Shown: positions 4,101 through 27,615 of the stretch, piece after piece | Layout of the letters: every line of letters begins with the position of its first letter | Position numbering within the stretch: position 1 is the stretch's first letter | Assembly (NCBI GenBank): GCA_018824145.1 | Contig: JAHJHC010000088.1 | Span: 2,696 to 66,695, forward strand | DNA: 64,000 nt | Source of the DNA: Candidatus Omnitrophota bacterium | GTDB lineage: Bacteria; Omnitrophota; Gorgyraeia; Gorgyraeales; Gorgyraeaceae | Direction of reading: 5' to 3' | Position numbers and translations under genes: made by a program | Notes under the pieces: model-generated | What the model was told of the DNA's origin: nothing | Seen by the model: only the letters and a program-made list of their open reading frames with translations | The model's database searches: none

Positions 4101-5336
4101 TGTGATGATATCGGAAGGAATACCTGGATGTACGACAGGATGAAGGCATTCACTATGCCAGAGAGATTATTACTCGAAGGTATGGCTAAAACCTTAAAAG
4201 TTATAAGAAACATTAAACCTGTAAAAAATGATTATAGAGAGTATCATGAAGATCCGATGTTTGCAGGCATTTTTCACGGGAGGAAGGCCTTTACAGGTCC
4301 GGAGCACGTTGTGATTGACCCTACGAATAAATGTAATTTAAAGTGCATTTCTTGTTGGCTTTACTCACCTTTACTTACTAGTGATAAACCGGATCCCGAT
4401 TTCCTGAAAAAAGAATTACCTAAGGATGTGCTTGTTAAGTTAATAGATGATTTGTCATCTTTGGGGACAAAACGCATTCGTTTTACTGGTGGCGGAGAAC
4501 CTTTTATGCACAAGGATTTAATGGAGATTATAGAGTATGCCCGCAGAAAAAAGCTTCTTGTTGCCTTGTCTACTAATTTTGGTATGGCCTCCAAAAAAGA
4601 TATAAAAAAGCTCATAGATTTAGGTTTAGAAGAATTGTGCATAAGTATATGGGGGTCTAATTCTCAGATTTACGACAAAATCCATCCCGGTGTTTCTTCT
4701 AGTTATTTTGAAAGATTGAAGGAAAATCTACTTTTTCTTAAGGAGACAAAGAAGAACGGGCCTCGTGTTACCTTTGCTAATGTAATTATGAATTTAAATT
4801 TCGAAGATTTTCAAGATATGTATAAATTCGGTTTACAATACGGAGCTGATGCGGTTTATTTTACTCTGGTAGATATATTTCAGAAACAAACAGACAAACT
4901 TTTATTGAATGAAGAAGAAAGAAAGAAGTTGTTAAATATGGCTATGGAGGTTAAAGAGAGAAATAAAGATGACAGTCTACATCTGGAGTTTTTTGATGGT
5001 TTTTTAAGAAGATTATCTAAGTCTTGTGAGGATTTCGAAAAGGGAGAGTATGATAAGTTCGATGTTGATAAGATTCCGTGTTATGTCGGCTGGTTTTTTG
5101 CTAGGGTTTTGGCCAATGGTAATATAGTTCCTTGTTGCCGCGGAGTGAAAAAGGTATTAGGTAATATAAATAAGAAATCCTTTAAAGATATATGGTTTTC
5201 AGAAAAATACAATGAATTTAGAGCAAGGGCAAAGTATTTATCAAAAAATGATATTTATTTTCAGAAAATAGGTTGCATAAAAGAATGTGATAATCTGATG
5301 CATAATGAAGAGATGCATAGTAAGATAGCATCTTAA
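1098..5336 (+). CDS. Giant 1412-aa protein with three tandem radical SAM domains, each followed by a SPASM/twitch-like Cys-rich region
   Basis: Three repeats of about 410 aa each. Each starts with a CxxxCxxCW motif (DRCNNTCIACW, NNCNNTCIACW, NKCNLKCISCW) plus a GSGEPF/GGGEPF motif. Each ends with CYIGW...NG-V-PCC...LGNI...IW, a SPASM-like signature. Repeats 1 and 2 are also similar at the nucleotide level (for example 1161-1245 versus 3078-3160). Confidence 0.8.
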   Translation: MNIWQEIFRGIENEKQAFCGPHTVQIDLTDRCNNTCIACWVHSPLLDKKEVFPEREKEISFPFVEQLICQLRVLGTKEIILSGSGEPFMYPQIKEAISLIKKSGIYLNIITNGTLLNKDMVRFIVDKGVDLITLSMWAGTPQAYVNTHPGRSLRDFEEIKEKLKNLNCYKQQSGLLLPHVKVYNVLCNRNHDDVEAMVDFAKDIDAGFVEFQIVDVIKGKTDNLLLNNELQKKIIAQFDKISKRHDFVKWHDLNVKLKGKDTMQDLRDFGKLWKNYRSDFVLLKKAQNIICSKEKFCEKIEQKNILLPPGHFQHLGFRFSFNEEVCKICAHFSRCFPSQECIVDANLLNVLGIGTLMRRFSSPKSELGLYERHVDYFPCYIGWYYARILTNGDVIPCCKAHLHPLGNIYRKSFSDIWGSNAYRKFRVKAKRAPKTDPYFSLINCIKSCDNWGMNVEISNRTKTFLHDRTITSKMKSERQIIVLAKDYIDSNFNPSYHDFGKGLVIDGGHKVGFAKYRFSIDEDGEYEFWSRYASNAIRPVDIYMDGILLKKGGLNKITDGWTSKFLKWYEEFTIELKKGEHLFGIRSSNSIPHIEKFILFKKDNPPAFIKKDKHKFFYKKLSQYITGKKRLESSLVKAVKNRYIESLGIYDGEYGYKGPFHVQIDLTNNCNNTCIACWCNSPLLKEKRLSPREKEQYLPMGLVKELLDETSAKGATEVYYSGSGEPFMHPDIMQILEYSKKKNLICHVNTNFSLLTKEKLRCLIDIGLDFLTVSTWAATPETYVKTHPNRTKEDFYKIRENLLYLNTHKKDKPCIKLYNVIFNMNYFEVEKMVEFAKETMSESLEFTLVDTMPNATDILVLNKEQLMELKKALDRIKCVLDEDNRVRDANILIFQFDQFLRRIYVVDDVKEAKYDRNIIDRMPCYIGWLFARIIPNGEVHSCLKAHRIPTGSLYKDRFLEIWNSQKQYHFRKKTLVCKKDDPFFRSIGNDSNIEEAGCYKSCDDIGRNTWMYDRMKAFTMPERLLLEGMAKTLKVIRNIKPVKNDYREYHEDPMFAGIFHGRKAFTGPEHVVIDPTNKCNLKCISCWLYSPLLTSDKPDPDFLKKELPKDVLVKLIDDLSSLGTKRIRFTGGGEPFMHKDLMEIIEYARRKKLLVALSTNFGMASKKDIKKLIDLGLEELCISIWGSNSQIYDKIHPGVSSSYFERLKENLLFLKETKKNGPRVTFANVIMNLNFEDFQDMYKFGLQYGADAVYFTLVDIFQKQTDKLLLNEEERKKLLNMAMEVKERNKDDSLHLEFFDGFLRRLSKSCEDFEKGEYDKFDVDKIPCYVGWFFARVLANGNIVPCCRGVKKVLGNINKKSFKDIWFSEKYNEFRARAKYLSKNDIYFQKIGCIKECDNLMHNEEMHSKIAS

Positions 5337-5362
5337 AGTAAAGCTGTTAAATTTACTAAGAC

Positions 5363-6777
5363 ATGGAGAAATTCGACATCATTCTTACTGTTTGTCCACC
5401 ATGGGGAAGTCCTTCTGTACCTATAGGCCTTGCGTATTTAGCCAGTTATCTTAAAGACAAAAAATTAAATCCAAAAGTTTTAGATTTGAACTTAGAAGTG
5501 TTTGATAATTTGAGCAACGAGGGATTCGAAAAATACTGGCTTTCTAGATATTGTAAGCATTGGAGTGACCAGAAATTGTTTTGCGAGTTTATTAAGAATA
5601 TACCTGAACAAATAGAATATTGCGTAGGTAGATTGCTTTCTTTTGGCACGGAAATCATAGGTTTTTCAATTAATCAAAGTAATCGAAATTTTTCAGTTGT
5701 AATTGCCCAAGAGTTAAAAAAAGAAATGAAAAGTTAAAGATAATATTTGGCGGTATGGGTGTCTTCATAAGAGGAGAGCGAATGTTAATTGCGCCTGACA
5801 TTGTGGATGCATATGTTTTAGGTGAAGGTGAAGAATCCCTTTTTGAACTTATATCCAGAATCAAAGAAAATAAAAGTTGTTTGGATGTTCCAGGAGTTTT
5901 AGTAGAGTCTTTCGAAGCCAATTATACCCCTAGAAAGAAAATCAAAAATTTAGATGAGATACCGTTTCCTACATATGAAGACTTTGCTCTAGATAGATAT
6001 CCAGAATCAAATACAATATCTATAATTTCTAGCAGAGGATGTATGAATAAATGTGTTTTTTGTGGAAATTGGCCATTTTGGGGGCAATTCAGGCATAGGA
6101 GTGGAAAGAATATTTTTGATGAGATAAAACATCACTATGAAAGACATGAAATTACTACATTTAAATTTAACGATTTAGCCTGCAATTGGAATTTAGAAGA
6201 ACTTAAACGGCTCTGTAATCTTGTTATAAATAATAAAATGCGTATTACTTGGCAGAGCTATGCAGTATTGGATAATCTATTGACGGATGATATTTTAAAA
6301 GATATGAAATTAACTGGTTGTTGTGCCCTTTCGTTCGGTGTGGAATCAGGATCCAATAGGATCCTTAAATCTATGGATAAAAACCATAGTGCTGAAGTCG
6401 CAGAAAAGGTACTTCGCAGAACTTATAATGCTGGGATTCAGACAAATATTAATATTATGGTAGGCTTTCCAGGTGAAGGTGAACAAGAATTACAGGAAAC
6501 TATAGATTTTTTGATTAGAAATGTTAAGTACATAAGTGTAATCGAAGCTATATCAGTCTGTTATATTAAACCTTTGTCAATATTAGCAAATAATCCACTT
6601 GCCTATAACATAGTTCTTCCTCCCGGACCAGATCGATGGTACAATTGGTCTGCATCTGATGGAACCAGCGACTATGGCAATAGAAAAAACTTTGCAGATA
6701 GAATTTTAAGATTAGTGAAAGACTTGAATTTAAACTTCGATGTAGATAACCTATATGGATATTTTTATATTTTTTAG
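5363..6777 (+). pseudogene. Cobalamin-binding radical SAM gene split by an apparent frameshift in an A7 homopolymer (about 5714-5720); pseudogene or sequencing error
   Basis: ORF 5363-5737 encodes the B12-binding N-terminal region (ILTVCPPWGSPSVPIGLAYLASYL). ORF 5755-6777, in another frame, continues with the paralog-conserved KIIFGG...VLGEGEE region and the rSAM cluster motif (SSRGCMNKCVFC). The frame switch coincides with the run ttaaaaaaag. Confidence 0.6.
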
Positions 6778-6876
6778 ATAATTCATTATAATTGTAACTA
6801 TTAGTGGCCCTGTAACTTTATGGAAAATAATTAGATGGAAAAACATTGATGTAGTTTATATTGTAATGAGGGGAAA

Positions 6877-8349
6877 ATGAGTATGAATAAAGATATAGTT
6901 TTAGTATCTCCTCCGCCAGGCTGGCAAAGGACGTTGCCTATTGGATTAGGATTTTTAGCATCATATTTAAGTAAGAGCGGATTTTCCGCTGTTATTTATG
7001 ATATGGCTTTAGATATGATCGGAAAAGTAAAAGATGAGGATCGCGATTGTCTGTGGGGATTAAAAGCAAAAAATCTTTGGTTAGATCCAGAGGTGTTTAA
7101 ATTATTCGTCACTAAATATGAAAAAGAGATTCAGTCTTGTGTAGACCATATACTTTCTTTTAGTTCATCTATTATAGGTTTTTCGGTTATTCATTCAAAG
7201 CAACTTGTTACTTTAGAGATTATTCGCAGGATTAAAAAGATAGACCCATCTATTACTATAATTGTCGGGGGACCGGCTTGTTTTTATGATGAGGACCGCT
7301 ATATTCTCGAAGCACCTAAGATCATAGACATATTTGTATTAGGTGAAGGAGAGAAGACTTTGTACGAATGCCTTGTTAATATCAAACAAAATAAGCCGCT
7401 TGACGAAATAAAAGGTGTTAGGACTTTGGAGTCTAATTACAAGGGATATATATCCAGAGACCCTATTGAAGATTTAGATACTATTCCTTTTCCTGAATAC
7501 CCTGGTTTGAAGATTGAAGACTATCAACCGGATCCAGTGCCGCTATTCTGTAGCCGCGGATGTTTTGGCAAATGTTCTTTTTGTGAAATTAAAAATATAT
7601 GGAAGAGTTATAGAACAAGGAGTGCCGAGAGTATTTTTGAGGAGATTAAATTCTATGTAGAAAAGAAAGAGATATTTCATTTTTCACTATTCGATTCCAT
7701 AGTGAACGGTGATCCGAAAAATTTAGAAAGGTTATGTGATTTTGTTATTAAATCTATGTATAAGATCCGTTGGGAAGGCAACGTGCTTGCTTTACCTTCG
7801 ATGAATAGGGATATTTATTCAAAAATGCAAAAGGCTGGCTGTGAACTTGTATATTTTGGTGTCGAAACAGGATCTGAATACGTTTGCAAAAAGATGAAGA
7901 AGCCGTTTACGATTTTTGAAGCGGAAAGGAATATTCGCTTAGCGCATGAGGCAGGCATAGAGGTTTCCGTAAATTTCATTACTGGTTTTCCAGGAGAGGA
8001 TGAAGAACATTTTCAGCAAACGATAGATTTCACTAAAAGAAATAGCCAATATATAGATAGAGTCGATTTTATTACCGAATGTCAAGTAGCTAGGGGAACG
8101 CACCTGTTTTTACACCCTGCTGATTACGGAATAGTTATACCAGAAGATTGGCAAGGCTATAAATGGTATACTAATGACGAGAAAAATACCATCTCTGTAA
8201 GACAAGCAAGAACTTTGATTCTTGGGAAGTATTTAGATTCACTGGGGGTTAAAATTAACGTAAATTTTAATCTTGATGATGGAAGCCAAAAAGTCAAGGG
8301 TAAGATAGTCGTTAATTTAAAGAAGGATATTAATAAGGGGACCTTATGA
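6877..8349 (+). CDS. Cobalamin-binding (class B) radical SAM protein
   Basis: N-terminal B12-binding-like region (VLVSPPPGWQRTLPIGLGFLASYL), then IIVGGP and VLGEGE motifs, then the rSAM CxxxCxxC motif (CSRGCFGKCSFC). Confidence 0.8.
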   Translation: MSMNKDIVLVSPPPGWQRTLPIGLGFLASYLSKSGFSAVIYDMALDMIGKVKDEDRDCLWGLKAKNLWLDPEVFKLFVTKYEKEIQSCVDHILSFSSSIIGFSVIHSKQLVTLEIIRRIKKIDPSITIIVGGPACFYDEDRYILEAPKIIDIFVLGEGEKTLYECLVNIKQNKPLDEIKGVRTLESNYKGYISRDPIEDLDTIPFPEYPGLKIEDYQPDPVPLFCSRGCFGKCSFCEIKNIWKSYRTRSAESIFEEIKFYVEKKEIFHFSLFDSIVNGDPKNLERLCDFVIKSMYKIRWEGNVLALPSMNRDIYSKMQKAGCELVYFGVETGSEYVCKKMKKPFTIFEAERNIRLAHEAGIEVSVNFITGFPGEDEEHFQQTIDFTKRNSQYIDRVDFITECQVARGTHLFLHPADYGIVIPEDWQGYKWYTNDEKNTISVRQARTLILGKYLDSLGVKINVNFNLDDGSQKVKGKIVVNLKKDINKGTL

Positions 8350-9143
8350 AAGTTTCTGCCTTAGACTTTCAAATTTTTCTTGTAAGACTAGGGCATGAAT
8401 ATTTTTTTCAGGGATTTTATTATTTCAAATTTCTGGAATACCCTTTAGTTTATAATAATCTTAACCTTGATCCCAGAGATAAATATCTTGATATTGGAAG
8501 CGGCCAATCAATTTTCCCTCTTTTTGCCTTAGTAAAAAATGATTGTTATGTACAAGTCTATGACGATTATTCTCTAATAAAAGATAGCATGGAATATTAT
8601 AAGAATATCATAGAAAAAATGAGCTTAAGCCCTTCTAGTAAAGAGAAATTTACTATCAATGAAACAACAGAGACAGACTTGCCAAGCGATTATTTTGATA
8701 AGATTTCTTGTATTTCTGTATTAGAGCATAGTAGAGGGAATGGCGATACCGAAACAATAAAAACAATTTCAAGGATTTTGAAGAAAAGGGGTAAAGTCGT
8801 AATGACTTTACCTTTTAATAATGGTGAATATATTGAAGAAGAAAATCCAGAAGATATTGGATTTTTTCAGCGCTTGTATAGTTTGGATGCAATAAAACAT
8901 AGAATAGGCGATCCTTCCGGCTTAGAGGTAGAAAAGGTTATATATTTTGGCGAATGTAATGCGCACATAGGCAGATTATATCGACAAAATAAATTTCATA
9001 GATTAAAGTGGATTATGCCATTTTTTCCCTCATTTTTTTGGCGAATATGCCATAGCTATGAAGGGGGGTTTCGTTGTTTTCATGAAAAAGAATTAGATAA
9101 AAAGTATATAGGTGTAAGTTGTATCGTAATGAGAAAGAAATGA
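8346..9143 (+). CDS. Putative class I SAM-dependent methyltransferase
   Basis: Glycine-rich motif I (YLDIGSGQSIFPL) followed by acidic motif II-like residues. Start overlaps the upstream stop by 4 nt, suggesting translational coupling. Confidence 0.45.
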   Translation: MKVSALDFQIFLVRLGHEYFFQGFYYFKFLEYPLVYNNLNLDPRDKYLDIGSGQSIFPLFALVKNDCYVQVYDDYSLIKDSMEYYKNIIEKMSLSPSSKEKFTINETTETDLPSDYFDKISCISVLEHSRGNGDTETIKTISRILKKRGKVVMTLPFNNGEYIEEENPEDIGFFQRLYSLDAIKHRIGDPSGLEVEKVIYFGECNAHIGRLYRQNKFHRLKWIMPFFPSFFWRICHSYEGGFRCFHEKELDKKYIGVSCIVMRKK

Positions 9144-12100
9144 ATTTTCCCAAATATTTATCTATCCAAACTACTTCTTTGTGTAATGCATCTTGTGTAT
9201 TCTGCCCTTACAGGGAGATGCAAGATATATTTCCCCCAAAAATAATGGACATGAATTTGTACAATAAGATTATAGATGAATGTGCAAATTATAAAAATGT
9301 AGAAAGAATTATTCTTTATATGAATAACGAACCGTTAACCGACCCTTATTTATTAGAAAGAATAAATTATGCAAAAGAAAAGATTCCATGGGCAAATGTC
9401 CATATTCTTACAAATGGATTATTGCTCACGGAAGAAATGGCGGAGAGGCTTATAAATTCTAAATTAGATTGGATCGGTATAAGTTTTCATGGGATAAGAC
9501 AAGAGACGATAGAGAATGCAATGGGTATTCCGTTTGGGGTTACTTTAAAGAGGATAGATGGTTTTGTAGAGAGGGCAAGGAGTAAAAAGGATATAAAAGA
9601 ATATGTTATGATTACGTTTTTAAGACATGAATATTTGACAGGAGAAGAAAAGGAAGAAGTAATCGGTTATTGGAAGAGTAAAGGGATAGAAAGGATTAGT
9701 TACTTTGATGGACCTGTTTCTCGTGCAGGGAACGTTAAACGTTTGGCAAAGACTCATAATAAAGGGAGAATTGTAGGTTGTAACTCTATTTGGGCAGATG
9801 AAATGATTCATATTGTTGAGGATGGTAAGATGGTTCTGTGTTGTATGGATTGGAGAAGAGAGCATGTGCTTGGAGATTTGAATAATCAGAGCATTTATGA
9901 GATATGGAATGGAGAAAGAAATAAGACATGGCAACTTATTTATGGTAAAGGAGATATGCCCGACGGCTTTCTTTGTCGAAAATGTGAAGAGGCACAAATA
10001 TCAGAGGAGGATCTATTGCTTATTATGACCCCTCCCTGGCAGACTAAAATGCCCCCGTTAGGCGCAGCATACTTAAGCAGTTTTTTAAGGTCCGAAGGGT
10101 TTAAAATAAAAGTAATAGATTTAAATGTAAAATTACATAATAGTGCTTCCGAGGATAAGAGATCTTTGTGGGATATTTCTACGATAAATAACTTTCCTCC
10201 AGATAAGATTGCAGAGAAATTTGTCCATGAGTTTCAGGGTGAATTAGAAGATTTTATTATGGAGGCATGTAATTCATCTGCAAAGCTTATAGGATTTTCT
10301 ACTACAATAGCCAGCATTACAATTGCTGTCTATTTAGCGCATCAGATTAAATTGAGAGATCCTTCTAAAATTACTATAATAGGAGGTCCTGGCGCTTATT
10401 GGAATACTTTTGACATTGATCCAAAGAAGTTAATAGATATATTTGTAGTCGGAGAAGGGGAATTACCTTTATTGGAGATACTAAAGTGGTCTAAGAGAGA
10501 ATTATCTCTTTCAGGTTTAATTGGAATACCAGGAACCGTAATATGCATAGATCAACAATACCTAAGTTTCCTACCTCCTAATCCTATTAAAAGAATAGAT
10601 GATATACCTTTTCCCGATTTTCTCGAATTTAATCTCAAAGATTATAATAAAGAGGACGGATATAAACCCTTACCGTTGCTTATTAGCAGAGGATGTATTA
10701 ATAGATGCAGTTTTTGTATTGACCACAAGATGAATAATCCTTTTAGAATAAAAGATCCGCATAAAGTGGTTGAAGAGATGAAATTTCATGTGAAACATTA
10801 TGATACCAGAGAATTTGAATTTAATGATTTATTATGCAATGGAAATTTAAAACAGTTGGAAAAGATATGCGATTTGATTATCGAGGAGAATATTGATATA
10901 AAATGGTCAAGTTATGCGGCGATAAGAGAAGGAATGAGTTTAGAATTATGTAGGAAGATGTACAAATCAGGATGTATGGGGATTTGTTATGGAATGGAGT
11001 CTGCTTCAGACATTGTTTTGAAAAAGATGAATAAAAGATATGATTCTCAGCTGGCCGAGGAGGTTATTCGCAATACTCACAATGCAGGTATAAAGAGTTG
11101 CATAAATATAGTTATCGGGCATCCAGGTGAGACTGAGAGAGAATTTAGAAATACTTATGAGTTTATACGAAGAAATAAAGATTATATAGATCAGGTAACT
11201 AATGTTTCTACGTGTTTTGTTTTATCGGAGACTGACCTTATGAATAACCCCAGTAAATTCGGTGTTTATTTTAAATGGCCTTTAAAGACTCGATGGAGAG
11301 CTTTTATTAAAAAGGATGGATTGTGCCCAAATTATACAGAATATTATACTGGACCAGATAATGGCCCTTATTCACGGGCACGTCGACTTAGGAGATTTTT
11401 AGGGCTCCTTCATAAGGAGAATGTCCCTTATCTTATTATAAATTACATAAAACCACACAATGAAAATTTGGATGAGTTTATCGAGGCAGACAAGCGTAAG
11501 AGAAATTTGAAATATAAATATTTTGAGTTAAATGTTTCAGAACAAGGGCGATGTAAATTGTTCTGTAAAAATTTAGAATTGACTAGGGATGTAGGAATGA
11601 ATGCTTCTTTTTTTGTTAATAACAAATGGATTGATTCTTCCACAGCGCGATGGGATGTTAAGCGACATAATGCATTTGTTGACATTAAGATAAGGTGGCC
11701 GGAATTTCCTATTACTCAGCATTGGACGGTAAAATTTACTAGTAGGTCTATAGATTGGGGTATAGAAATATTTTTTCACGAAGGACTAAGAATTTTTCAA
11801 AGTAAAATAGGTGTAATGTTAGTGAATAAATATAATAAATATATATTAAATGATTCAATAGCTAATTTTCCTAGCTTTTCTACAAAAAAGTGGCAAGAGA
11901 TTTTGTTCTCAAGAATTTCCGAAATAGGCTTGGTTTCAAGTAGTCCTTTTCCGGGAATCGTTCTAAAACCGAAATTTGAAAAAGAAGTTTTTATTCAATT
12001 GCAGAATTCCCCTTCTTCTTTATTGACAAGGATGGTCAATGTTTGTTTTTTTGAAAATAGCAATCCCGAAGGATTTAATAATGACGGACATTATTTCAAA

Positions 12101-12148
12101 AAGGGGGAAGTCATAAAAGGTAAGATAGCAATGTCTTTAGATATTTGA
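9119..12148 (+). CDS. 1009-aa fusion: an N-terminal rSAM/SPASM-like domain, a cobalamin-binding rSAM domain, and a C-terminal extension of about 280 aa with no recognisable domain
   Basis: First rSAM motif SLCNASCVFCPY with a downstream Cys-rich region (CNSIW...LCCMDW...LGDL...IW). Second half has a B12-binding-like region (LLIMTPPWQTKMPPLGAAYLSSFL) and a second rSAM motif (ISRGCINRCSFC). An alternative start is at 9140. Confidence 0.8.
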   Translation: MYRNEKEMNFPKYLSIQTTSLCNASCVFCPYREMQDIFPPKIMDMNLYNKIIDECANYKNVERIILYMNNEPLTDPYLLERINYAKEKIPWANVHILTNGLLLTEEMAERLINSKLDWIGISFHGIRQETIENAMGIPFGVTLKRIDGFVERARSKKDIKEYVMITFLRHEYLTGEEKEEVIGYWKSKGIERISYFDGPVSRAGNVKRLAKTHNKGRIVGCNSIWADEMIHIVEDGKMVLCCMDWRREHVLGDLNNQSIYEIWNGERNKTWQLIYGKGDMPDGFLCRKCEEAQISEEDLLLIMTPPWQTKMPPLGAAYLSSFLRSEGFKIKVIDLNVKLHNSASEDKRSLWDISTINNFPPDKIAEKFVHEFQGELEDFIMEACNSSAKLIGFSTTIASITIAVYLAHQIKLRDPSKITIIGGPGAYWNTFDIDPKKLIDIFVVGEGELPLLEILKWSKRELSLSGLIGIPGTVICIDQQYLSFLPPNPIKRIDDIPFPDFLEFNLKDYNKEDGYKPLPLLISRGCINRCSFCIDHKMNNPFRIKDPHKVVEEMKFHVKHYDTREFEFNDLLCNGNLKQLEKICDLIIEENIDIKWSSYAAIREGMSLELCRKMYKSGCMGICYGMESASDIVLKKMNKRYDSQLAEEVIRNTHNAGIKSCINIVIGHPGETEREFRNTYEFIRRNKDYIDQVTNVSTCFVLSETDLMNNPSKFGVYFKWPLKTRWRAFIKKDGLCPNYTEYYTGPDNGPYSRARRLRRFLGLLHKENVPYLIINYIKPHNENLDEFIEADKRKRNLKYKYFELNVSEQGRCKLFCKNLELTRDVGMNASFFVNNKWIDSSTARWDVKRHNAFVDIKIRWPEFPITQHWTVKFTSRSIDWGIEIFFHEGLRIFQSKIGVMLVNKYNKYILNDSIANFPSFSTKKWQEILFSRISEIGLVSSSPFPGIVLKPKFEKEVFIQLQNSPSSLLTRMVNVCFFENSNPEGFNNDGHYFKKGEVIKGKIAMSLDI

Positions 12149-12210
12149 ACATTAAGATGCTAGTAGGTTGGTTTGCCTATAGACAAAAAAGAGATTGAGG
12201 AAATGAGAAA

Positions 12211-15200
12211 ATGAAAGAGTTCAAGGATAAGAAAGAAGTCCCTGATATATTTCTTGTAATTTCACCACCATGGGGCATAGAAGATCCTCCTTTGGGATTA
12301 GCTTGCCTTTCTACGTACCTTAAGATTAGGGGTTTTAAGCCAGAAGTGTTTGATTTTAATATTTATATGTATGACAATGCAAACCAGTCATATAAATACC
12401 TCTGGGAGATGGGAAGTGCAAACGATTGGAGAGGCAAGGGTGCATCTAACGAGATATTTTCTATCTTTAAAAAAGAAATAGATTATTGTGTAGAGAAGAT
12501 TGTTTCTTCTGGCGCTGAGATAGTAGGATTTTCTATGCTTTCTAACTCGCAGGATTTGATTACCGCGAAGATTATAAAAGAAGTTAAGACAAAGAGACCT
12601 AATATCAAGATAATTTTAGGGGGGATTTCTATCTCTGTCTCTGAGCAGAGGGCTTTCTTTGAAGCAAAGGGCAATAATTTAATCGATGCTTATATTATAG
12701 GAGAAGGAGAAGAGAGTTTATGTCAGCTATTGCAAGCCATTAAATCGGCACAATCACTTGAAGGTATTCAGGGCGTTTTAATTTATAAAGATGACAACGT
12801 AATTCACTCACCCAGGATTTTAAAGGAAAATCTTGATGAATTTCCCTTTCCAACATTTGAAGAGTTCGATTTTAATATGTATCTTAATAAAGGCAATAGT
12901 CTTGCTATGGAGTGGTCGAGAGGTTGTATCGGTCATTGTTCTTTCTGTGCCTTTAAAACATCATCATATATGTTTAGAAAAAAGTGTCCGGAGTTAATAG
13001 TTAAAACGGTAGAATATTATATTAAAAAATATAAAACTAATCATTTTTCCCTAGTAGATTCAGCTATAAACGGGGATTTAAAATATCTTGAGGAAATTTG
13101 CAATTTACTCATTAGATATAAACTAAATGTCAAATTTTCCGCTTTAGCTATCCCAAGAAGAGATATGAGCAAGAGATTATTAGGGATAATGAAAGAGGCA
13201 GGATTTATAAGAATAGAATATGGCGTGGAGAGTGGTTCGGATAAGGTCTTAAAGGAAATGAAAAAGGTTTATGCCTCAAGAGACGTTGAGAATATTATAA
13301 AAGCGACTCATGAAACAGGGATTGCAACAGTAATTTATTTGATTATAGGTTTTCCGGGGGAAGGGGAAGTCGAGTTTGCAGAGACAATTGAGTTTTTAAA
13401 GAGTAACAGTGAATATATCGATCTTGTTAAATCTATAAACCCGCTATATCTAATGGCTGGGTCGCATATTTATAAGCATCATAAGCATTATGGGATTACA
13501 TTACCAGCTGTTGACTCTGATATTAAGTGGTTTATAGGTAGAGAAAATACATACAAAATAAGAGTAGAACGGGTAAATAAAATCAGGTATCTTCTGAAAG
13601 AAATAGGTGTTAAATATCATAGTAAAGATAACCAGTTCGAACGCGAAGTGAGTTTTTCACAGGTTTCTTCAGATAGAACTTTAGACTTTTTGTTGGTCAA
13701 TTTGCCTCCCTGGTCGCAGGAAAATCCTCATATAGGGATAGGATTTTTAAGTAGTTATTTGAGGAGTAAGTCTGTTGCTCTGAAAGTGTTGGATTTAAAC
13801 AAAGCCTTTTTTATCAACAACCCGGATTTTAGAATGCTATGGCATGTAGAAAATAAAAATTTTTGGTCAAACAAAGATACATTCCCGTTAATTTTGGAAA
13901 TATTCCAAAAAGATATTGAAAAGTCCGTAGAAGATATTTTGTCTTTTGATTGTGCTGTGTTAGGTTTTTCCGTGGTCGATCCCAAAGAGAAATTAACCAT
14001 AGAGTTTATAGAAAGGATAAAAGAAAAATCCCCGGATAAAAAAATAATTTTAGGGGGACCGGCTACTTCTACTCCTGAACAGAGGAAAATATTTTTAGAT
14101 GCTGCAGGAGAAGACATAGATGTTTTTGTTGTGGGTGAAGGAGAGGAAACTTTGTTTTATTTATTAGAGATGTTTTTACGTAAGAAAGATATCAAGATAA
14201 CAGGAGAGTGCTATATAAAAAATAACGGAAGATGGGTGCATAGAGGTGTGAGACCTATGATTGCTTTGGATGGTATCCCCTTTCCTACTTATGAAGAATT
14301 TGATTTAAATTTATACGGTAAGTCTCTTTTGGTTGAATGGTCTAGAGGATGTAAAGGTAGATGCGCATTTTGTAAGAATTACAGGTTGTTTTCTATGTAC
14401 AGATTTAAACCAGCAGATTGTATAGTGCAAGAGTTGAAATATCATAAAGAAAAATACAATATATGCGAGTTTACAGTTACTGATAGTATTTTAAACGGAG
14501 ATTTAGAGAATTTAAACCAGGTGTGTAATAAGGTGATCTTGGATAACCTAAAGATAAAATGGACAGGGCAGATAGCACCTCATAAATATATGGGTTTTGA
14601 TTTTTTTAAAAAGATGAAAGAAGCTGGATGTTTTAAGCTTCAGATAGGACTGGAATCCGGATCTAATAGGGTTTTAAGGTCTATGCGAAAGACTTTTACG
14701 GCAGAAATCTCTGAAATGAACATAAGGTTTGCTAAAAAAGCTGGGATTGAAACTGAGATCTTTGTAATGGTAGGATTTCCTTCTGAGACAGAGAGAGATT
14801 TTAAGGAGACTTACAATTTTATCAGGAGAAATTCTAATTATATAGATACGATAAAATCAATTAATACCTTGCATTTGATAGCAGGGACAGATATATATGA
14901 AAACAGAGAGAAGTACGGTATTAAACCTTTGCCTGAAAAAGATTGGCATTATTTATGGGAGACTTATGATGGAAATATATATAACTTGAGAAAAGAAAAA
15001 ACGCAAAGGTTATTGGATTTGTCAAATGACTTAGGGTTGAAAGTTATGGAGGCTAATATACAAGAAGGAAAAGAAAATATAGTTGAAACAATAATAGGAA
15101 AACAAGATTTAAAAGAAAAGATCCTAATACTTAAAGAATCCGTGAATAGCTTACAAAGACTTCCGCAGAAAAGGATGATTACAAGAAGAAGTCGGAAGCT

Positions 15201-15315
15201 GTCTAGATGGCTGATCTTGATTTTCCTGTGTTTTTATACATTTTTTTATATTATTTATTTCTGGATCTATATGAAGCTTAGGAATAAGGTATTGTTGGGC
15301 GGTAGGAGAAAATAA
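12211..15315 (+). CDS. 1034-aa tandem fusion of two cobalamin-binding rSAM modules with a C-terminal transmembrane anchor
   Basis: Two copies of the B12-binding region (LVISPPWGIEDPPLGLACLSTYL; LLVNLPPWSQENPHIGIGFLSSYL) and two rSAM motifs (EWSRGCIGHCSFC; EWSRGCKGRCAFC). The C-terminus carries a hydrophobic helix (WLILIFLCFYTFFYIIYFWIY). Confidence 0.8.
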   Translation: MKEFKDKKEVPDIFLVISPPWGIEDPPLGLACLSTYLKIRGFKPEVFDFNIYMYDNANQSYKYLWEMGSANDWRGKGASNEIFSIFKKEIDYCVEKIVSSGAEIVGFSMLSNSQDLITAKIIKEVKTKRPNIKIILGGISISVSEQRAFFEAKGNNLIDAYIIGEGEESLCQLLQAIKSAQSLEGIQGVLIYKDDNVIHSPRILKENLDEFPFPTFEEFDFNMYLNKGNSLAMEWSRGCIGHCSFCAFKTSSYMFRKKCPELIVKTVEYYIKKYKTNHFSLVDSAINGDLKYLEEICNLLIRYKLNVKFSALAIPRRDMSKRLLGIMKEAGFIRIEYGVESGSDKVLKEMKKVYASRDVENIIKATHETGIATVIYLIIGFPGEGEVEFAETIEFLKSNSEYIDLVKSINPLYLMAGSHIYKHHKHYGITLPAVDSDIKWFIGRENTYKIRVERVNKIRYLLKEIGVKYHSKDNQFEREVSFSQVSSDRTLDFLLVNLPPWSQENPHIGIGFLSSYLRSKSVALKVLDLNKAFFINNPDFRMLWHVENKNFWSNKDTFPLILEIFQKDIEKSVEDILSFDCAVLGFSVVDPKEKLTIEFIERIKEKSPDKKIILGGPATSTPEQRKIFLDAAGEDIDVFVVGEGEETLFYLLEMFLRKKDIKITGECYIKNNGRWVHRGVRPMIALDGIPFPTYEEFDLNLYGKSLLVEWSRGCKGRCAFCKNYRLFSMYRFKPADCIVQELKYHKEKYNICEFTVTDSILNGDLENLNQVCNKVILDNLKIKWTGQIAPHKYMGFDFFKKMKEAGCFKLQIGLESGSNRVLRSMRKTFTAEISEMNIRFAKKAGIETEIFVMVGFPSETERDFKETYNFIRRNSNYIDTIKSINTLHLIAGTDIYENREKYGIKPLPEKDWHYLWETYDGNIYNLRKEKTQRLLDLSNDLGLKVMEANIQEGKENIVETIIGKQDLKEKILILKESVNSLQRLPQKRMITRRSRKLSRWLILIFLCFYTFFYIIYFWIYMKLRNKVLLGGRRK

Positions 15316-15337: not shown

Positions 15338-16285
15338 ATGACAGGAGACAAAATCAAGTTTTCAGTAGTAGTGCCTTTTTATAATGAAGAAGACAATGTA
15401 AAAATACTCCACAAGGAATTGATTTCTGCGCTGAAAGGGCATGAATATGAGTTAGTTTATGTTAATGACGGAAGCACAGATTCTACTTATTCTAGACTTA
15501 TAAAAGAGACAGAAGACCTTAAGCCGCCGCATGCAAAAATAATTAATTTCACTAAAAATCTTGGTCAGTCGTTTGCGTTCAAGGCAGGATTGGATAATAC
15601 TTCTTTTGATACAATAGTTTTTATAGACGGGGATTTACAAAATGATCCTCGCGATATCCCTTTGTTATTAGAGAAATTTCTAGAGGGATATGATTTGGCC
15701 CAGGGTATAAGGGCGAGGAGGAAGGACCCGTTTTTTTCTAAGATAGTGCCTTCAAAAATAGCCAATTTAATTTTAAGAATTTTATGCGGAAGTAAATTTA
15801 AAGATTTGGGATGTTCTTTAAAAGTATTTTCTAAAAAGATTACCGATAGATTGTTTTTTTATAAAGGGTTTCACAGGCTCCTACCCGTATATTTTTCTTT
15901 AAAAGGCGCTAAGGTTACAGAAGTAAAAGTAAACCACAGAAGTCGAAAATCAGGAAAGAGTAAATATGGATTTTCAAGGACGATAGAAGTGTTATTTGAG
16001 GTTATAAAGATAAATTTTTTCGAGAAAGGCTCAAATAATTTTATATATATTACAATAGGTGTGGGAATGACTTTGGTTATCTTAAGTTTTTTAGTGGGGT
16101 TCAATTTTATTAAATATATCAATTTATACTCCTTTATGGCCCTTCTTTCTTTTGTATTAGGGCTATATCTTTTTGTAATAGCATCAAGTCTTTATATTAT
16201 AAGGTCTTTTTATAGTTATTATCAAAAATATAAAGAATTTGATGCATATTTATTATCAGTTGTAAATTATAGTCAAAATCCCTAA
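15338..16285 (+). CDS. GT2 polyprenol-phosphate glycosyltransferase (GtrB/ArnC/DPM1-like) with C-terminal TM helices
   Basis: N-terminal FSVVVPFYNEE, then DGS...D and DGDLQNDP motifs typical of GT-A family GT2 dolichol-phosphate sugar synthases, followed by two C-terminal hydrophobic helices. Confidence 0.8.
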   Translation: MTGDKIKFSVVVPFYNEEDNVKILHKELISALKGHEYELVYVNDGSTDSTYSRLIKETEDLKPPHAKIINFTKNLGQSFAFKAGLDNTSFDTIVFIDGDLQNDPRDIPLLLEKFLEGYDLAQGIRARRKDPFFSKIVPSKIANLILRILCGSKFKDLGCSLKVFSKKITDRLFFYKGFHRLLPVYFSLKGAKVTEVKVNHRSRKSGKSKYGFSRTIEVLFEVIKINFFEKGSNNFIYITIGVGMTLVILSFLVGFNFIKYINLYSFMALLSFVLGLYLFVIASSLYIIRSFYSYYQKYKEFDAYLLSVVNYSQNP

Positions 16286-16286
16286 T

Positions 16287-17756
16287 ATGATTGCTGTTGG
16301 AAAGGACAATTTTATGCAAGGAATAAAGTTTTGTTTGGTTTTCCCCCCTTATAAAGAAAGTGAAGATATCTTTTTCTTGAAAACCGCGAGAAATAATTTA
16401 GGGAAGATTCCTCCTCTTAGTTTATTGGCTGTGGCTGCAATATTAGAGAAATACGGTGCTGAGGTTAAGCTTATAGATGCAAATGCGTCAGGGCTTTCTG
16501 TAGATGAGGTGATCCAAACTGCTGTTGAATTTTCTCCTGATTTTTTGGGATTCACCTTATCTACATATCAGTTCCATTTTACCTTAGAATGGATAAGGAA
16601 GCTTCGGTCGAAAGTTGACGTTCCTGTAATAGTAGGTGGTCCTCATGCAAGAATATATCCTCGGGAGGTATTAACTCATGAGTGCATCGATTATTGTGTT
16701 ATGGGGGATGCAGAAGATATATTGCCCCAGTTGACCTATTCATTAGTCGAGAAAAAGAGCTTAACTGAAGTAGGGGGGATAGCATATAAAAATAATGAAG
16801 GAGATGTAAAGTCAAACGACTTTTCTTTGTATATTGACAGTTTAGATGGTGCCCCGTTTCCTTCGCGGCATTTATCGGACAATTCTTTATACTATTCTTT
16901 GATATCTAAATATAAAAACTTTACGGCAATGACTTCAAGCAGGGGATGTGTTTTTCAGTGCACATTTTGTGATAATCATTGTATTCCTTACAGGGCTATG
17001 AGTCCTAAGAGGGTTGTGGATGAGATGGAGATTTGCAAAAAAGATTTTGCTATAAATGAAATAGATATGTTTGACGGGGTTTTTTCTGTTAATAAAAAGA
17101 GATTGTTGGAAGTAAGCGATCAAATAGTAAAAAGAAAGCTTAAAATATATTGGTCATTTAGGACCAGGGCTGATTTGATTGATAAAGAGACGCTAACGGC
17201 ATTAAAATCAGCGGGATGTATAAGGATATATTATGGAATAGAAAGTGGTTCCGCTAAGATTTTAAAAAATATTAAGAAGAATGTGGAAATCGAAAATATT
17301 AAATATATACTGAAATTGACAAAAGGCGCAGGGATAGATACCTTTGGATATTTTATGGTTGGAAATTATGGGGAAACCTATGAGACGATCAGCGAGACTA
17401 TGGATCTAATGCTATCTCTCCCCTTGGATTACATACAGATAGCTCCGATATTTTATCCTCCTAATACTGAGGTTTATTCTGATTTAATGAAGGTAATAAA
17501 ACGGGATTATTGGAAGGACTATACCGTAGATTCCGAGTTAGAGATGGAATTCCCTATAATAGGGACTGATTTTAATAAAAGTCAAATCCATTCTATTGTC
17601 AGAAAAATGTATTTACGTTTTTATTTAAGGCCTAAATTTATTATCAAATTCATATTTAGTTTAAAATCTTTTAGCCAATTAGCACGATCGGTAAAGGCAG
17701 TTTTTGATATGGTCAGAGAATCTGTAATAGACAATTCTGCAAATAAGGAGTTTTAA
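16287..17756 (+). CDS. Cobalamin-binding (class B) radical SAM protein
   Basis: B12-binding-like N-terminal region (IVGGPHA, MGDAED) and rSAM motif SSRGCVFQCTFC. Confidence 0.8.
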   Translation: MIAVGKDNFMQGIKFCLVFPPYKESEDIFFLKTARNNLGKIPPLSLLAVAAILEKYGAEVKLIDANASGLSVDEVIQTAVEFSPDFLGFTLSTYQFHFTLEWIRKLRSKVDVPVIVGGPHARIYPREVLTHECIDYCVMGDAEDILPQLTYSLVEKKSLTEVGGIAYKNNEGDVKSNDFSLYIDSLDGAPFPSRHLSDNSLYYSLISKYKNFTAMTSSRGCVFQCTFCDNHCIPYRAMSPKRVVDEMEICKKDFAINEIDMFDGVFSVNKKRLLEVSDQIVKRKLKIYWSFRTRADLIDKETLTALKSAGCIRIYYGIESGSAKILKNIKKNVEIENIKYILKLTKGAGIDTFGYFMVGNYGETYETISETMDLMLSLPLDYIQIAPIFYPPNTEVYSDLMKVIKRDYWKDYTVDSELEMEFPIIGTDFNKSQIHSIVRKMYLRFYLRPKFIIKFIFSLKSFSQLARSVKAVFDMVRESVIDNSANKEF

Positions 17757-17788
17757 AGGATAAAGACATATCCATAGGGTTTGTTGCC

Positions 17789-19237
17789 ATGCGTAAAAAA
17801 AGAAGGATTTTATTAATAGTAATTTTTTTTATTGGGATAAGTTTACGTTTGGCTTCTTTTTCTTTTAATCAGGACAACTTGGATATGGATGATGACGAAC
17901 CTTGGTCGAGAATAAATTTAGCAATGGTCTGGCTTGAATCTGGAGAAGGGATTGTCGATTTAAATTTCAGCCCTCTTTATACTTATATGGTATCGACATT
18001 GCGGTTTTTTGATAAAAAAAATTTTATTTTACTTACACGTCTTGTAAGCCTTGTTTTCGGTAGTCTTTTTATATTTTTATATTTTAATTCAGTAGAGAAG
18101 ATATTTAATGCAAAGATAGCTTATCTTTCCGCTTTTTTTGTAGCCGTTTACCCTTTACACATTCATCTAAGCACGCTTTCTTTACCCGAGGTCATAGCTT
18201 GTTTCTTCTTATTCGCGTCTTTATTTTTTCTGCATCAATTTTTATATGTTTCGGATAGATGGACTAATCTGATTATCTCCGCATTATTTTTAACATATGC
18301 TTGTATGCTGCGATTCGAGTGTTGGCTGTTTATTTTAATATTTTCCACATGGATTTTTGTTAAACGTAAAATTTCTAAGGGGTTATTGATATTTTTGTTT
18401 TTGTCTTTAATTTTTCCTTCGGTATGGATGTTTGTGAATTATAGATATACGGGCAATCCCGTAAATTTTGTATTTATTTCGGCAGAAGCTACCAAGTATT
18501 TTATGTCTACGGAAGATTTATCGTTAAGAGATAAAATCTGGGGATGGCCCAAGGTATTGTATTATACGTTAGGCAGCCCTTTATTTATACTTTGTTGTAT
18601 GGGTTTTATCGTCCCTCTTGTTTTTAGGAAATTTAGAAATGTATTTTATTATTCATTTGCGATATTCTTTTCAATTTATATGGTTAAGTCTATTAATAAT
18701 ACTTATAGTTTCGATATTTGGAGGTATAGTTTGCCATTAGGCTTATTTTTTATTCCCTTTGCTGGTGTAATTATCTACTCATCGCCGGCTTTTTTTCAAA
18801 GAAAAAAATATTTTATAATGTTCATTTGTCTGCTTGTGTTTTTTGCTTGCATTAAAACGTCATATGTTTTTTCTAAAGGAAGTCAAGCGCCTGAAACTTT
18901 AAATAAAGTGGTGGAATGGATAAAAGCGAATATTTCTGATTCAAACAAAAGAATTTTACTGGAAATATCGCCGAGATATCCTTTGAATCACCCCTATATA
19001 GTAATAAATTCCAATCTTAAATCTTATCAGCACCTCGGATTTTTTTCTACTGGCATGGAAGAGTCTGATGAGAAGTGGGATGAATTTCTCTGTTTGCTTG
19101 GAGATGCAAATTATATACTAGTCAATAAAGAAGAAAGTTTTTTCTCTGAAATATTTTCCGAAGAAAAAGAAATCATAGAAAAGAATGTTATAAAGGTATT
19201 CGAAAATGAAGATTGGTTTATTTGTAAACTTGAATAA
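17789..19237 (+). CDS. Polytopic membrane protein, GT-C superfamily glycosyltransferase (ArnT/PMT-like)
   Basis: More than 10 predicted TM helices. Has an acidic DDDE motif in the first extracytoplasmic loop. Sits directly downstream of a polyprenol-phosphate sugar synthase gene. Confidence 0.55.
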   Translation: MRKKRRILLIVIFFIGISLRLASFSFNQDNLDMDDDEPWSRINLAMVWLESGEGIVDLNFSPLYTYMVSTLRFFDKKNFILLTRLVSLVFGSLFIFLYFNSVEKIFNAKIAYLSAFFVAVYPLHIHLSTLSLPEVIACFFLFASLFFLHQFLYVSDRWTNLIISALFLTYACMLRFECWLFILIFSTWIFVKRKISKGLLIFLFLSLIFPSVWMFVNYRYTGNPVNFVFISAEATKYFMSTEDLSLRDKIWGWPKVLYYTLGSPLFILCCMGFIVPLVFRKFRNVFYYSFAIFFSIYMVKSINNTYSFDIWRYSLPLGLFFIPFAGVIIYSSPAFFQRKKYFIMFICLLVFFACIKTSYVFSKGSQAPETLNKVVEWIKANISDSNKRILLEISPRYPLNHPYIVINSNLKSYQHLGFFSTGMEESDEKWDEFLCLLGDANYILVNKEESFFSEIFSEEKEIIEKNVIKVFENEDWFICKLE

Positions 19238-20693: not shown

Positions 20694-20699
20694 TAAATT

Positions 20700-23785: not shown

Positions 23786-23792
23786 GATTTTT

Positions 23793-24893: not shown

Positions 24894-25840
24894 TGATAAA
24901 TATATCCATTATAATTTTAACTTTTAATAGCTCTGAGCATATTAAATCTTGTCTGGATTCTGTATTTAGACAAAGTTATCGGAATTTTGAGGCGATTTTA
25001 GTAGATAATGGTTCAATAGATGACACCTTATCATTGGTAAAAAGGGATTATCCAAAAGTTAGATTGGTTGAGAATAAAAGAAATCTTGGTGCTTGTGCGG
25101 CAAGAAATAAAGCTATTGGTCTCGCTAAAGGGAGGTGGATTCTGACCTTGGATTGCGATGTTATTTTAAAAAAGGATTTTATTGAGAAAATAGTCGGATT
25201 TATAGGAGAGGCTGGAGAGTCAATAGGCATGTTTCAACCGAAGATCTTACAAATAGATAGAAAGACTATTTATTCTTGTGGGATATATCTTTCTAATATG
25301 AGAAGATTCCATGACATTGGCAGAGGGATTCCTGAAAATGGTAGATTTGACATGACAAAAGATATTTTCGGTGCTTGTTCTGCTGCGGCGGTGTACAAAA
25401 AACAGATGTTAGAAGAAATAAAAGAAACCACGGGTTATTTTGATGAAAGATTTTTCTTCTTAGTAGAGGATGTGGACTTAGCATGGCGGGCACAAAGAAA
25501 GGGTTGGGGAGCAAAATTTTATTCTGAAGCAGTTTGTTATCATTATGGCAATTCTTCAGGGTCGGATAAAAAACTCAGGCAATTTCTTTCTTTTCGCAAT
25601 CGATATTACACCATAATAAAAAATGAGGGCCTTAGAAAATATATTAAGAAATTTTTTCCATTATTGTGTTATGATTTTCCGAGATTAGTATATTTGTTTT
25701 TTACTAATAAGTATATTTTAAGAACAGTTAAAGATAAAGTATCTATATCCCTGAAGGGTGAATTTCTACATGTTGCTATAACTCTCCTGTTAACTCACCG
25801 ATTACTTGACAGGCTGTTGTATGTATGGGAAAATTATTAA
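24893..25840 (+). CDS. GT2 glycosyltransferase (rhamnosyltransferase-like)
   Basis: ISIIILTFNSSEHIKSCLDSV...VDNGSIDDT and a DCDV motif. Paralog of the gene at 40963-41856. Confidence 0.8.
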   Translation: MINISIIILTFNSSEHIKSCLDSVFRQSYRNFEAILVDNGSIDDTLSLVKRDYPKVRLVENKRNLGACAARNKAIGLAKGRWILTLDCDVILKKDFIEKIVGFIGEAGESIGMFQPKILQIDRKTIYSCGIYLSNMRRFHDIGRGIPENGRFDMTKDIFGACSAAAVYKKQMLEEIKETTGYFDERFFFLVEDVDLAWRAQRKGWGAKFYSEAVCYHYGNSSGSDKKLRQFLSFRNRYYTIIKNEGLRKYIKKFFPLLCYDFPRLVYLFFTNKYILRTVKDKVSISLKGEFLHVAITLLLTHRLLDRLLYVWENY

Positions 25841-27397: not shown

Positions 27398-27402
27398 TCA
27401 GA

Positions 27403-27594: not shown

Positions 27595-27615
27595 ATAGTT
27601 TAATCTGTATTAGAG

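Follow-up and report, generated by a model that had tools for sequence, protein, structure and literature searches.

The radical S-adenosylmethionine (rSAM) proteins described here are encoded in a DNA stretch of 64,000 nt (the window, in whose coordinates positions are given unless another locus is named) from the Candidatus Omnitrophota metagenome-assembled genome (MAG) GCA_018824145.1, contig JAHJHC010000088.1, positions 2,696-66,695 of the forward strand. Two neighbouring plus-strand open reading frames (ORFs), 9119-12148 and 12211-15315, encode the products designated P1 and P2, which are composed of rSAM-SPASM modules (S), cobalamin-dependent B12-rSAM modules (B), the C-terminus of P1 (X) and the tail of P2 (T), arranged as S-Bx-X in P1 and Ba-Bb-T in P2. 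Homology-based annotation was carried out with the Pfam library at the gathering score and with the NCBIfam library at its curated cut-offs. The two genes lie 62 nt apart in a tightly packed co-directional array, with a GAGG ribosome-binding site before P2, and belong to a co-directional island of low guanine-plus-cytosine (GC) content that spans positions 1-42,000 of the window (0.33 versus 0.41) and holds about 13 rSAM domains.

Domain organization and integrity of P1 and P2

The ORF of P1 opens with a TTG at 9119, and the length of 1009 amino acids (aa) in the original prediction was counted from this codon; the ORF itself stands, while the likelier start is the ATG at 9140, which the gene calls of NCBI and Logan likewise adopt and which gives a protein of 1002 aa (9140-12148) that NCBI names "radical SAM protein". 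Pfam matches occur in the order Radical_SAM, SPASM, B12-binding, Radical_SAM, i.e., Radical_SAM in two stretches (1.7e-34), SPASM (PF13186, 7.4e-10, 39.4 bits versus a gathering score of 21.5) at ORF aa 226-289 behind the rSAM core, and B12-binding (PF02310, 2.7e-11, 43.8 bits versus 32.1). The S module (aa 1-290, 9140-10009) consists of an rSAM core (CX3CX2C at 9182-9205) and an auxiliary-cluster domain (cysteines at 9779-9985). A full SPASM motif contains seven cysteines and holds two auxiliary clusters. Comparison of 79 homologues of S revealed not seven but five auxiliary cysteines, all invariant (C214, C234, C235, C279 and C282; CX19CC...CX2C), which suffice for one cluster and not for two, so that the module is Twitch-like; the predicted SPASM type thus holds for the Pfam match and fails for the full motif. 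The closest solved relative of S, with a similar fold, is BtrN, the butirosin 2-deoxy-scyllo-inosamine dehydrogenase, a Twitch-type rSAM enzyme that acts on an aminocyclitol. S is the most conserved module of the family (44-74% identity). A linker of about 7 aa (QISEEDL, between ...CRKCEEA and LLIMTPPW...) leads into the Bx module (aa 291-769, 10010-11446), which contains a cobalamin-binding domain, an rSAM core (CX3CX2C at 10694-10717) and a C-terminal subdomain; it shares 31-34% identity with the remaining B modules encoded in the window. Hydropathy analysis found no hydrophobic, transmembrane (TM)-like segment in P1.

The C-terminal region of about 280 aa, in which no recognisable domain had been seen, turned out to comprise the C-terminal subdomain of the B12 module and a beta-sandwich of about 215-230 aa similar to galactose mutarotase. 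The latter is the X domain (aa 770-1002, 11447-12145), for which there is no Pfam or NCBIfam model. Its AlphaFold2 model is confident (pLDDT 89.2, pTM 0.84) and all-beta, with the beta-supersandwich fold of the galactose mutarotase/aldose 1-epimerase superfamily. True mutarotases have conserved catalytic His and Glu residues. An alignment of P1 aa 770-1002 with 22 homologous segments contains no conserved His or Glu, and its invariant columns are rich in Trp (W61, W93, W104 and W149, plus G50, D63, S64 and K120); for these reasons X looks like a binding module, and its identification as a true mutarotase was rejected.

P2 (1034 aa, 12211-15315) starts with the Ba module (aa 1-490, 12211-13680) and continues with the Bb module (aa 491-960, 13681-15090), each made up of a B12-binding domain and an rSAM core (CX3CX2C at 12925-12948 in Ba and at 14350-14373 in Bb). 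In Pfam the order B12-binding - Radical_SAM is found twice (Radical_SAM in two stretches, 4.9e-43; B12-binding in two stretches, 1.5e-21, together 76.9 bits versus the gathering score of 32.1), both CX3CX2C motifs are invariant in 15 homologues, and the two halves share 37% identity, which confirms that the whole B12-binding plus rSAM unit is duplicated. With PF02310 ahead of the rSAM core and a CX3CX2C motif in every B module, P1 and P2 belong to the class B rSAM enzymes. The T tail (aa 961-1034, 15091-15312), always preceded by a module of the Bb type, is composed of an LK..IN.LQ.LP helix, a basic stretch, a single TM helix and an LR.K.LLGG motif. The helix is the lone hydrophobic segment of P2 (aa 997-1021, 15199-15273; Kyte-Doolittle 19-aa mean 2.36, Arg/Lys flanks), hydropathy showing neither an N-terminal hydrophobic segment nor any other TM segment, and P2 is the only rSAM protein of the window with such a segment. 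The tail is kept in 63 homologues with all of these elements and with YT..YI.YFW in the TM helix, which is followed by 10-23 residues; the predicted hydrophobic C-terminal helix was therefore found again by hydropathy and by conservation, and P2 has the single C-terminal helix of a tail-anchored inner-membrane protein. The conserved motif inside the helix suggests that the tail does more than anchor the protein passively and may dock onto a partner in the membrane or mediate oligomerisation. Since rSAM chemistry needs cytoplasmic SAM and reductant, and P2 lacks an N-terminal hydrophobic segment, its catalytic domains would face the cytoplasm.

Both ORFs are continuous without internal stop codons, the motifs CNASCVFC, LCCMDW, CINRCSFC, CIGHCSFC and CKGRCAFC are all found in P1 and P2, and all four CX3CX2C motifs are intact. 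Identical proteins have been deposited in two NCBI accession series (MBU1062389.1 and MBU1853428.1 for P1, MBU1062388.1 and MBU1853429.1 for P2) from Candidatus Omnitrophica/Omnitrophota MAGs, P1 and P2 alike only as "radical SAM protein", the JGI, ENA and Logan data contain copies as well, and the independent Logan assembly of SRR2544004 (locus L092) shows 0 mismatches to the 10,852 nt of window positions 1-10852, a span in which the S-B junction lies. At 37% identity the duplication in P2 must be old and not an assembly repeat, and a recent or assembly-derived duplication was also rejected on the ground that each half has orthologues of its own. The DNA does come from a MAG, a paralogue nearby (5363-6777) is truly split between frames, and two ATP-binding cassette (ABC) fragments (38661-39502) look split too; but given the uninterrupted ORFs, the identical proteins in separate data sets, the matching assembly, the diverged P2 halves and the recurrence of the same orders in more than 60 diverged homologues, an artefact, whether by chimeric assembly, frameshift or an overlooked stop codon, is effectively refuted, and the SPASM-rSAM/B12-rSAM fusion and the tandem B12-rSAM protein are both genuine.

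Recurrence of the fusions and sharing of the X domain

When the modules were mapped over 181 retrieved homologues, the fusion orders of P1 and P2 were found to recur in dozens of proteins at 35-70% identity: S-B-X (16), S-B-T (15), S-B-B-T (18), S-B-B-X (4), S-B-B with a C-terminal TM helix (9), B-B-T (11), B-B-B(-T) (8), B-X (7) and S-B-B-B-T (1). The search for homologues with the same fusion order, suggested with the original prediction, was thus positive, and the counts indicate that the fusions are a recurrent modular theme. Most family members carry X or no anchor. The fusion homologues come chiefly from Omnitrophota, and also from Nanoarchaeota/Woesearchaeota, Cloacimonetes, Planctomycetia and others. 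Two conserved units can be discerned among them: Bx-X, the P1-type B module being 55-64% identical wherever X follows, and Bb-T, the second B module of P2 being 52-69% identical wherever the tail follows (B-B-T, S-B-B-T, B-B-B-T and S-B-T); S and the more variable Ba are appended to these units. A scan of genome contigs with the B-B-T alignment was driven by the generic cobalamin pattern [DE]x[FY][VI][VIL]GEGE[EK]; most of the B12-rSAM loci retrieved are unrelated, and L008-L014 alone are close.

The origin of P1 can be read from a syntenic locus of Omnitrophica GCA_021735655.1 (L090), where the gene order is methyltransferase, S, Bx-X, Ba-Bb-T, two family-4 glycosyltransferases (GT4), ABC ATPase and permease, with 49-67% identity to the window proteins. 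In this locus S is a separate gene of 290 aa (67% identical to P1 aa 1-286, ending in ...CEEAKQEI and a stop codon), the B-X gene of 720 aa begins 9 nt behind it (49% identical to P1 aa 291-1002), and the B-B-T protein is 53% identical to P2 and has the same tail; the methyltransferase is 57% identical. Because S and B-X are adjacent separate genes in L090, P1 arose when neighbouring genes fused, a classic (Rosetta-stone) sign that the S and B-X activities cooperate. P2 is an old duplication and fusion of Ba and Bb.

The X domain is not confined to P1. When 1.84 billion representative proteins were searched with a profile, 558 of them were found to contain it, often in 3-5 and in up to 8 tandem copies. 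The multi-X proteins P0182, P0192, P0199 and P0207 begin with an ABC-transporter ATPase domain (Pfam ABC_tran, then X), and hidden Markov model (HMM) searches detected 2-3 copies of X in the large exporter ATPase of four related loci (L090, L089, L002 and L011), so that X lies C-terminal to the ATPase of glycan ABC exporters. The Wzt_C domain (PF14524) had no Pfam match in P1 or in the ABC-X proteins. One N-terminal X copy is present in an rSAM protein of 740-800 aa in L092, L090, L001/2, L089 and L088, and the end-truncated L003 orthologue contains part of one. Immediately upstream of the window, an incomplete ORF that runs off the contig (L092 3-1343) contains two copies and probably encodes the C-terminal end of an exporter ATPase. 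According to the HMM matches, at least three proteins of one cluster, i.e., the exporter ATPase, the X-rSAM protein and P1, carry X, and the exporter ATPase has 2-5 copies of the domain type found in P1. Two single proteins combine X with an rSAM-SPASM part: P0186 (1856 aa) has the order ABC-Xn-rSAM-SPASM, exporter and tailoring enzyme in one chain, and P0187 (1188 aa) is Xn-rSAM-SPASM.

The conserved core of the related loci is made up of an ABC-2 permease, the ABC-Xn protein, the X-rSAM protein, a triple rSAM-SPASM protein, the S/B fusions and a GT4 gene (GT4_a). GT4 or GT2 genes together with an ABC-2 permease and an ABC ATPase are present in L001-L005 and L088-L090, and in the Nanoarchaeota locus L005 a canonical Wzt (with Wzt_C) and Wzm stand beside B-S-B, B, B-B, several rSAM-SPASM, GT2 and GT4 genes. 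Cluster modules are also fused to glycan machinery: S to GT4 in P0068 and P0073-79, B to GT4 in P0152, P0154, P0158 and P0161, and B to Wzt_C in P0167. The cluster type is typical of Omnitrophota and is found in DPANN archaea too. On an unrelated Gram-negative metagenome contig (L091 9106-15003), genes for a GT9 protein (heptosyltransferase family), a GT4-GT4-S fusion of 1052 aa and a B12-rSAM protein of 604 aa follow one another; this operon, a minimal unit of glycosyltransferases, S and B, may be the easiest for experiment.

A proposed role in polysaccharide tailoring

NCBIfam models matched below their cut-offs included TIGR03975, PhpK and HpnJ, which are among the top matches, and ApyD, the ladderane enzyme, MgmA (TIGR04014) and BchE, the nearest to its cut-off being TIGR03975 with 273.2 versus 281.85, a score summed over two modules. 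The best match of P2 in the PDB is MgmA (9ccb, 6.9e-14), a cobalamin-dependent C-methylase. As the best solved relative is a C-methylase and the best family matches are C- and P-methylases, C-methylation is the likeliest B reaction, and judging from these relatives the B modules most likely C-methylate. The class has precedents for sugar C-methylation (GenK, MoeK5) and for ring contraction of lipid-linked glucosamine (HpnJ), and it also includes ring-contracting (HpnJ, OxsB) and cyclising (BchE) enzymes that do not methylate (PMC9204698); by analogy some B modules may contract or cyclise instead, and with family matches below the cut-off the "double methyltransferase" of the original prediction is unproven. 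S, by analogy with BtrN, probably oxidises or epimerises a sugar carbon. P1 and P2 resemble GenK/GenD1 (gentamicin), MoeK5 (moenomycin), HpnJ (hopanoid) and MgmA in that a cobalamin-binding domain at the N-terminus precedes the CX3CX2C core, but those enzymes are single modules with small-molecule or protein substrates, whereas here two or three modules share one chain with a tail anchor or X, encoded in a polysaccharide cluster.

In the Wzm/Wzt O-antigen ABC transporters the carbohydrate-binding domain (CBD) of Wzt recognises the modified chain end (PMC9445017). This recognition domain is C-terminal on the exporter ATPase, the place that X takes here, but X differs from it in not being PF14524, in its galactose-mutarotase-like fold and in its 2-5 tandem copies. 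Unlike the Wzt CBD, X is found on tailoring enzymes as well (P1 and the X-rSAM protein of 749 aa), an arrangement for which, as far as we know, Wzt CBDs offer no published example. In the Nanoarchaeota cluster L005 the canonical Wzt_C is used where the others carry X.

We propose, with a probability of roughly 58%, that P1 and P2 serve as multi-catalytic tailoring enzymes in an rSAM-rich, ABC-transporter-dependent polysaccharide pathway. We infer that the substrate is a glycan and that it is methylated and oxidised before it leaves the cytoplasm. GT4 and GT2 enzymes would build the polymer, linked to polyprenol as its carrier, at the cytoplasmic membrane face, and the rSAM modules would modify unactivated sugar carbons while the polymer is still cytoplasmic, the B modules using SAM and cobalamin most likely for C-methylation (some possibly for ring contraction or rearrangement) and S, with one auxiliary Fe-S cluster as in BtrN, oxidising or epimerising a sugar position. 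Recruitment might follow two routes: T would hold the catalytic domains of P2 on the inner membrane face, and X would direct P1 by binding the glycan. The original prediction of a membrane tether is supported by the helix conserved in the 63 homologues, and a lipid-linked substrate at the cytoplasmic membrane face is the most economical reading of the T anchor. Since the exporter ATPase carries the same X domain, the pump would recognise the same polymer, and the ABC-2 transporter with its X-repeat ATPase would export the modified product. Alternatively, X might serve homotypic docking of the enzymes onto the exporter and not glycan binding; the data are compatible with both.

Several points weigh against this proposal. 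Every match to a named B12-rSAM or SPASM family lies under the curated NCBIfam cut-off, so that the assigned reaction types are tentative, and the reaction chemistry of every member is read from its sequence. The TM call for P2 comes from hydropathy only. Some distant tandem-B homologues, e.g., in the Cloacimonetes locus L007, have no glycosyltransferase neighbours. The window also contains, at 29769-37825, a sub-cluster resembling those for peptides made on the ribosome and modified after translation (RiPPs), with NTP_transf_5, peptidase-U32/TPR, HprK-related/ScmC-like, rSAM-SPASM, GT1 and rSAM genes; these genes are not conserved in the related loci examined, save for weak matches (21-27% identity) of the two rSAM genes.

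A bolder and more tentative form of the proposal is that the cluster applies a RiPP-like logic to polysaccharides: about a dozen rSAM modules might diversify, in the cytoplasm and after its polymerisation, a simple polymer derived from housekeeping nucleotide sugars, with X as a "glycan recognition element" common to the tailoring enzymes and the exporter ATPase. P1 and P2 would then be assembly-line-like, and their products could be C-methyl, epimerised, oxidised or ring-contracted residues otherwise unknown in glycans. No nucleotide-sugar tailoring genes were found in the window, which fits modification after assembly. The proteusin/polytheonamide RiPP pathways, with an rSAM epimerase and several B12-rSAM C-methyltransferases, follow the same logic of post-polymerisation diversification with a shared recognition device, but their polymer is a ribosomal peptide, while here neither a precursor gene nor a RiPP recognition element (RRE) was found and the context is that of glycans; the relation is one of analogy, not of membership.

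Among the other explanations considered, the one that survives best, although we regard it as unlikely, takes the substrate of P2 to be a polyprenol-phosphate monosaccharide, made by the adjacent GT2, modified before flipping and transferred by GT-C enzymes as in the Arn pathway (the GT2 being ArnC/GtrB-like in this scheme). It draws on the block at 15338-22577 on the plus strand directly behind P2, where a polyprenol-phosphate GT2 gene (GT2_a; ArnC/PgfS-like, with two C-terminal TM helices) is joined by a further B12-rSAM gene (HpnJ/BchE-like), two GT-C (PMT_2) genes and an AsnB-type amidotransferase gene, and on the S-B-B-T gene of L003, which is followed by a PMT_2 gene. The block is, however, missing from the syntenic loci L090, L001 and L088, where the P2-type genes lead directly to GT4, and is a lineage-specific insertion relative to them; L090, L001, L088 and L089 all keep P2-type genes (37-61% identity) followed by GT4 without the GT2_a/GT-C/AsnB block, and a GT-C gene is located within 10 kb in just two of the five loci with T-type proteins. 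The downstream polyprenol-phosphate GT2 and GT-C genes of the original prediction are thus annotated correctly, but the link to P2 is not conserved: the conserved partners are GT4_a, the X-bearing rSAM protein, the triple rSAM-SPASM protein and the ABC exporters.

Still less probable is a pathway in which the rSAM modules mature a ribosomal peptide or (glyco)protein, in the manner of SPASM maturases and PoyB/C-type B12 C-methyltransferases, and the glycosyltransferases then decorate it. No precursor gene was found in the rSAM block: its sole small ORF (5363-5737, 124 aa), tried as a RiPP precursor, was rejected, being the N-terminal cobalamin domain of the split paralogue. The Pfam results contain no RRE/PqqD domain, the modules are fused to GT4, Wzt_C and a carbohydrate-type fold and not to peptide-recognition domains, and the AsnB homologue is closest to the amidotransferase model associated with XrtA and exopolysaccharide (EPS). 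Equally improbable is the modification of membrane lipids, i.e., the bridging, cyclising or methylating of membrane-spanning lipids, which would explain the anchor and has a model in the SPASM/Twitch enzyme Hbs with the B12-rSAM enzymes Hgm and GrsA/B (bioRxiv 10.1101/2023.10.20.563219). No lipid-synthesis genes (mss, tes, plsC-type) were found near the fusions in ten loci, where glycosyltransferases and polysaccharide exporters are constant, and the 25 best-scoring NCBIfam models listed for P1 or P2 do not include Tes. Also counted against a lipid substrate are the carbohydrate-type fold of X and its location on exporter ATPases, the prevalence of family members with X or without an anchor, and the presence of the cluster in DPANN archaea, which largely lack lipid synthesis.

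The polysaccharide-tailoring system proposed here is built from known superfamilies; the new variations, on computational grounds, are modular fusions, an apparent glycan substrate and the sharing of X. To our knowledge rSAM sugar chemistry has been known from aminoglycosides, moenomycin and hopanoid head groups, and not as a large-scale tailoring of surface polysaccharides. Full-text literature searches turned up no account of fused or tandem B12-rSAM enzymes, of rSAM-rich polysaccharide clusters or of X; the words fusion, fused and tandem are absent from the reviews PMC9204698 and PMC12931638, and glycan and polysaccharide from PMC12931638 (2026). A 2026 Omnitrophota preprint reports that rSAM domains co-occur with GT4 in giant proteins and that polysaccharide cassettes are variable, and enzymes of the P1/P2 type are not described in it. 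The present analysis provides a functional context for hundreds of entries labelled merely "radical SAM protein". Omnitrophota and DPANN cells are ultra-small and often episymbiotic. If the proposal is right, their coats would be glycans in which fused multi-module enzymes have C-methylated the sugars or modified them by other radical chemistry, which would add a new class of glycan modifications, X would be a new carbohydrate-recognition family (558 representative clusters, no Pfam model), and the system would offer an experimentally tractable case of substrate recognition common to tailoring enzymes and exporter.

The gene island around P1 and P2

The rSAM genes of the island encode, in order, the X-rSAM protein, the triple rSAM-SPASM protein, a split B12-rSAM protein, a B12-rSAM protein, P1, P2, another B12-rSAM protein, an rSAM-SPASM protein and an rSAM protein. 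They are accompanied by a class I methyltransferase, an AsnB-type amidotransferase, an ABC-2 exporter pair, a Wzy_C-family protein and glycosyltransferases of the families GT4 (two), GT2 (three and a fragment), GT1 (one) and GT-C (PMT_2; three). The genes located below, as far as 27397, are on the plus strand. The window opens at 1-1101 with the C-terminal part of the X-(B12-like)-rSAM protein of 749 aa, whose core is HpnJ-like (HpnJ model 1.3e-53, under the cut-off) and whose N-terminal X (HMM match at aa 14-219) is upstream of the window in the overlapping locus L092; the listed ORF 157-1101 is just the C-terminal part of this protein (L092 3-3623 region), which has orthologues of 53-73% identity in seven related loci. 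The triple rSAM/SPASM fusion follows at 1098-5336 (1412 aa; Pfam Radical_SAM and SPASM in three stretches each). It is a larger fusion than P1 or P2, and versions of 1284-1434 aa with 54-68% identity are found in five related loci.

The split B12-rSAM paralogue (5363-6777) consists of two ORFs in different frames, 124 aa at 5363-5737 and 340 aa at 5755-6777, which align to P2 aa 12-127 and 156-469, respectively. The same split is present in the Logan assembly, and the gene is probably a real frameshift or pseudogene, or else a two-piece enzyme. A single-module B12-rSAM paralogue at 6877-8349 is 35-36% identical to the P2 modules. Directly upstream of S, a class I SAM methyltransferase is encoded at 8346-9143 (Pfam Methyltransf_23/11), and its orthologue has the same position in L090.

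Behind the inserted block, Pfam identified GT4_a, GT4_b and GT2_b at 22622-25840; GT4_a is the most conserved partner other than rSAM proteins, with 48-68% identity in eight of ten related loci including that of the Nanoarchaeota. An ABC-2 exporter pair of ATPase and permease (25825-27397; Wzt/Wzm-like, DrrAB-like) has the same position in L090. It is followed, within 27397-28307, by about 580 nt without a long ORF and then by a GT2 fragment of 109 aa, probably a truncated gene, with matches of 53-61% identity in L001 and L088. Farther downstream, a small S24-peptidase-like gene (38020-38547) adjoins two overlapping ORFs, 38661-39059 and 38978-39502, which share an ABC ATPase domain between them, the first with its N-terminal and the second with its C-terminal half, and look like a frameshifted or degraded gene.

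Window scans for tRNA genes and Rfam elements found none, the island boundary at about 42000 being unmarked by either, and a promoter/terminator scan showed no enrichment over shuffles. At this boundary the GC content climbs from about 0.33 to about 0.41 and housekeeping genes begin, with PNPase at 42276 and UppP at 44418, then FtsK, RodZ, a MiaB-like protein and PgsA, and also CinA, RecA, HtrA, AlaRS and HisD.

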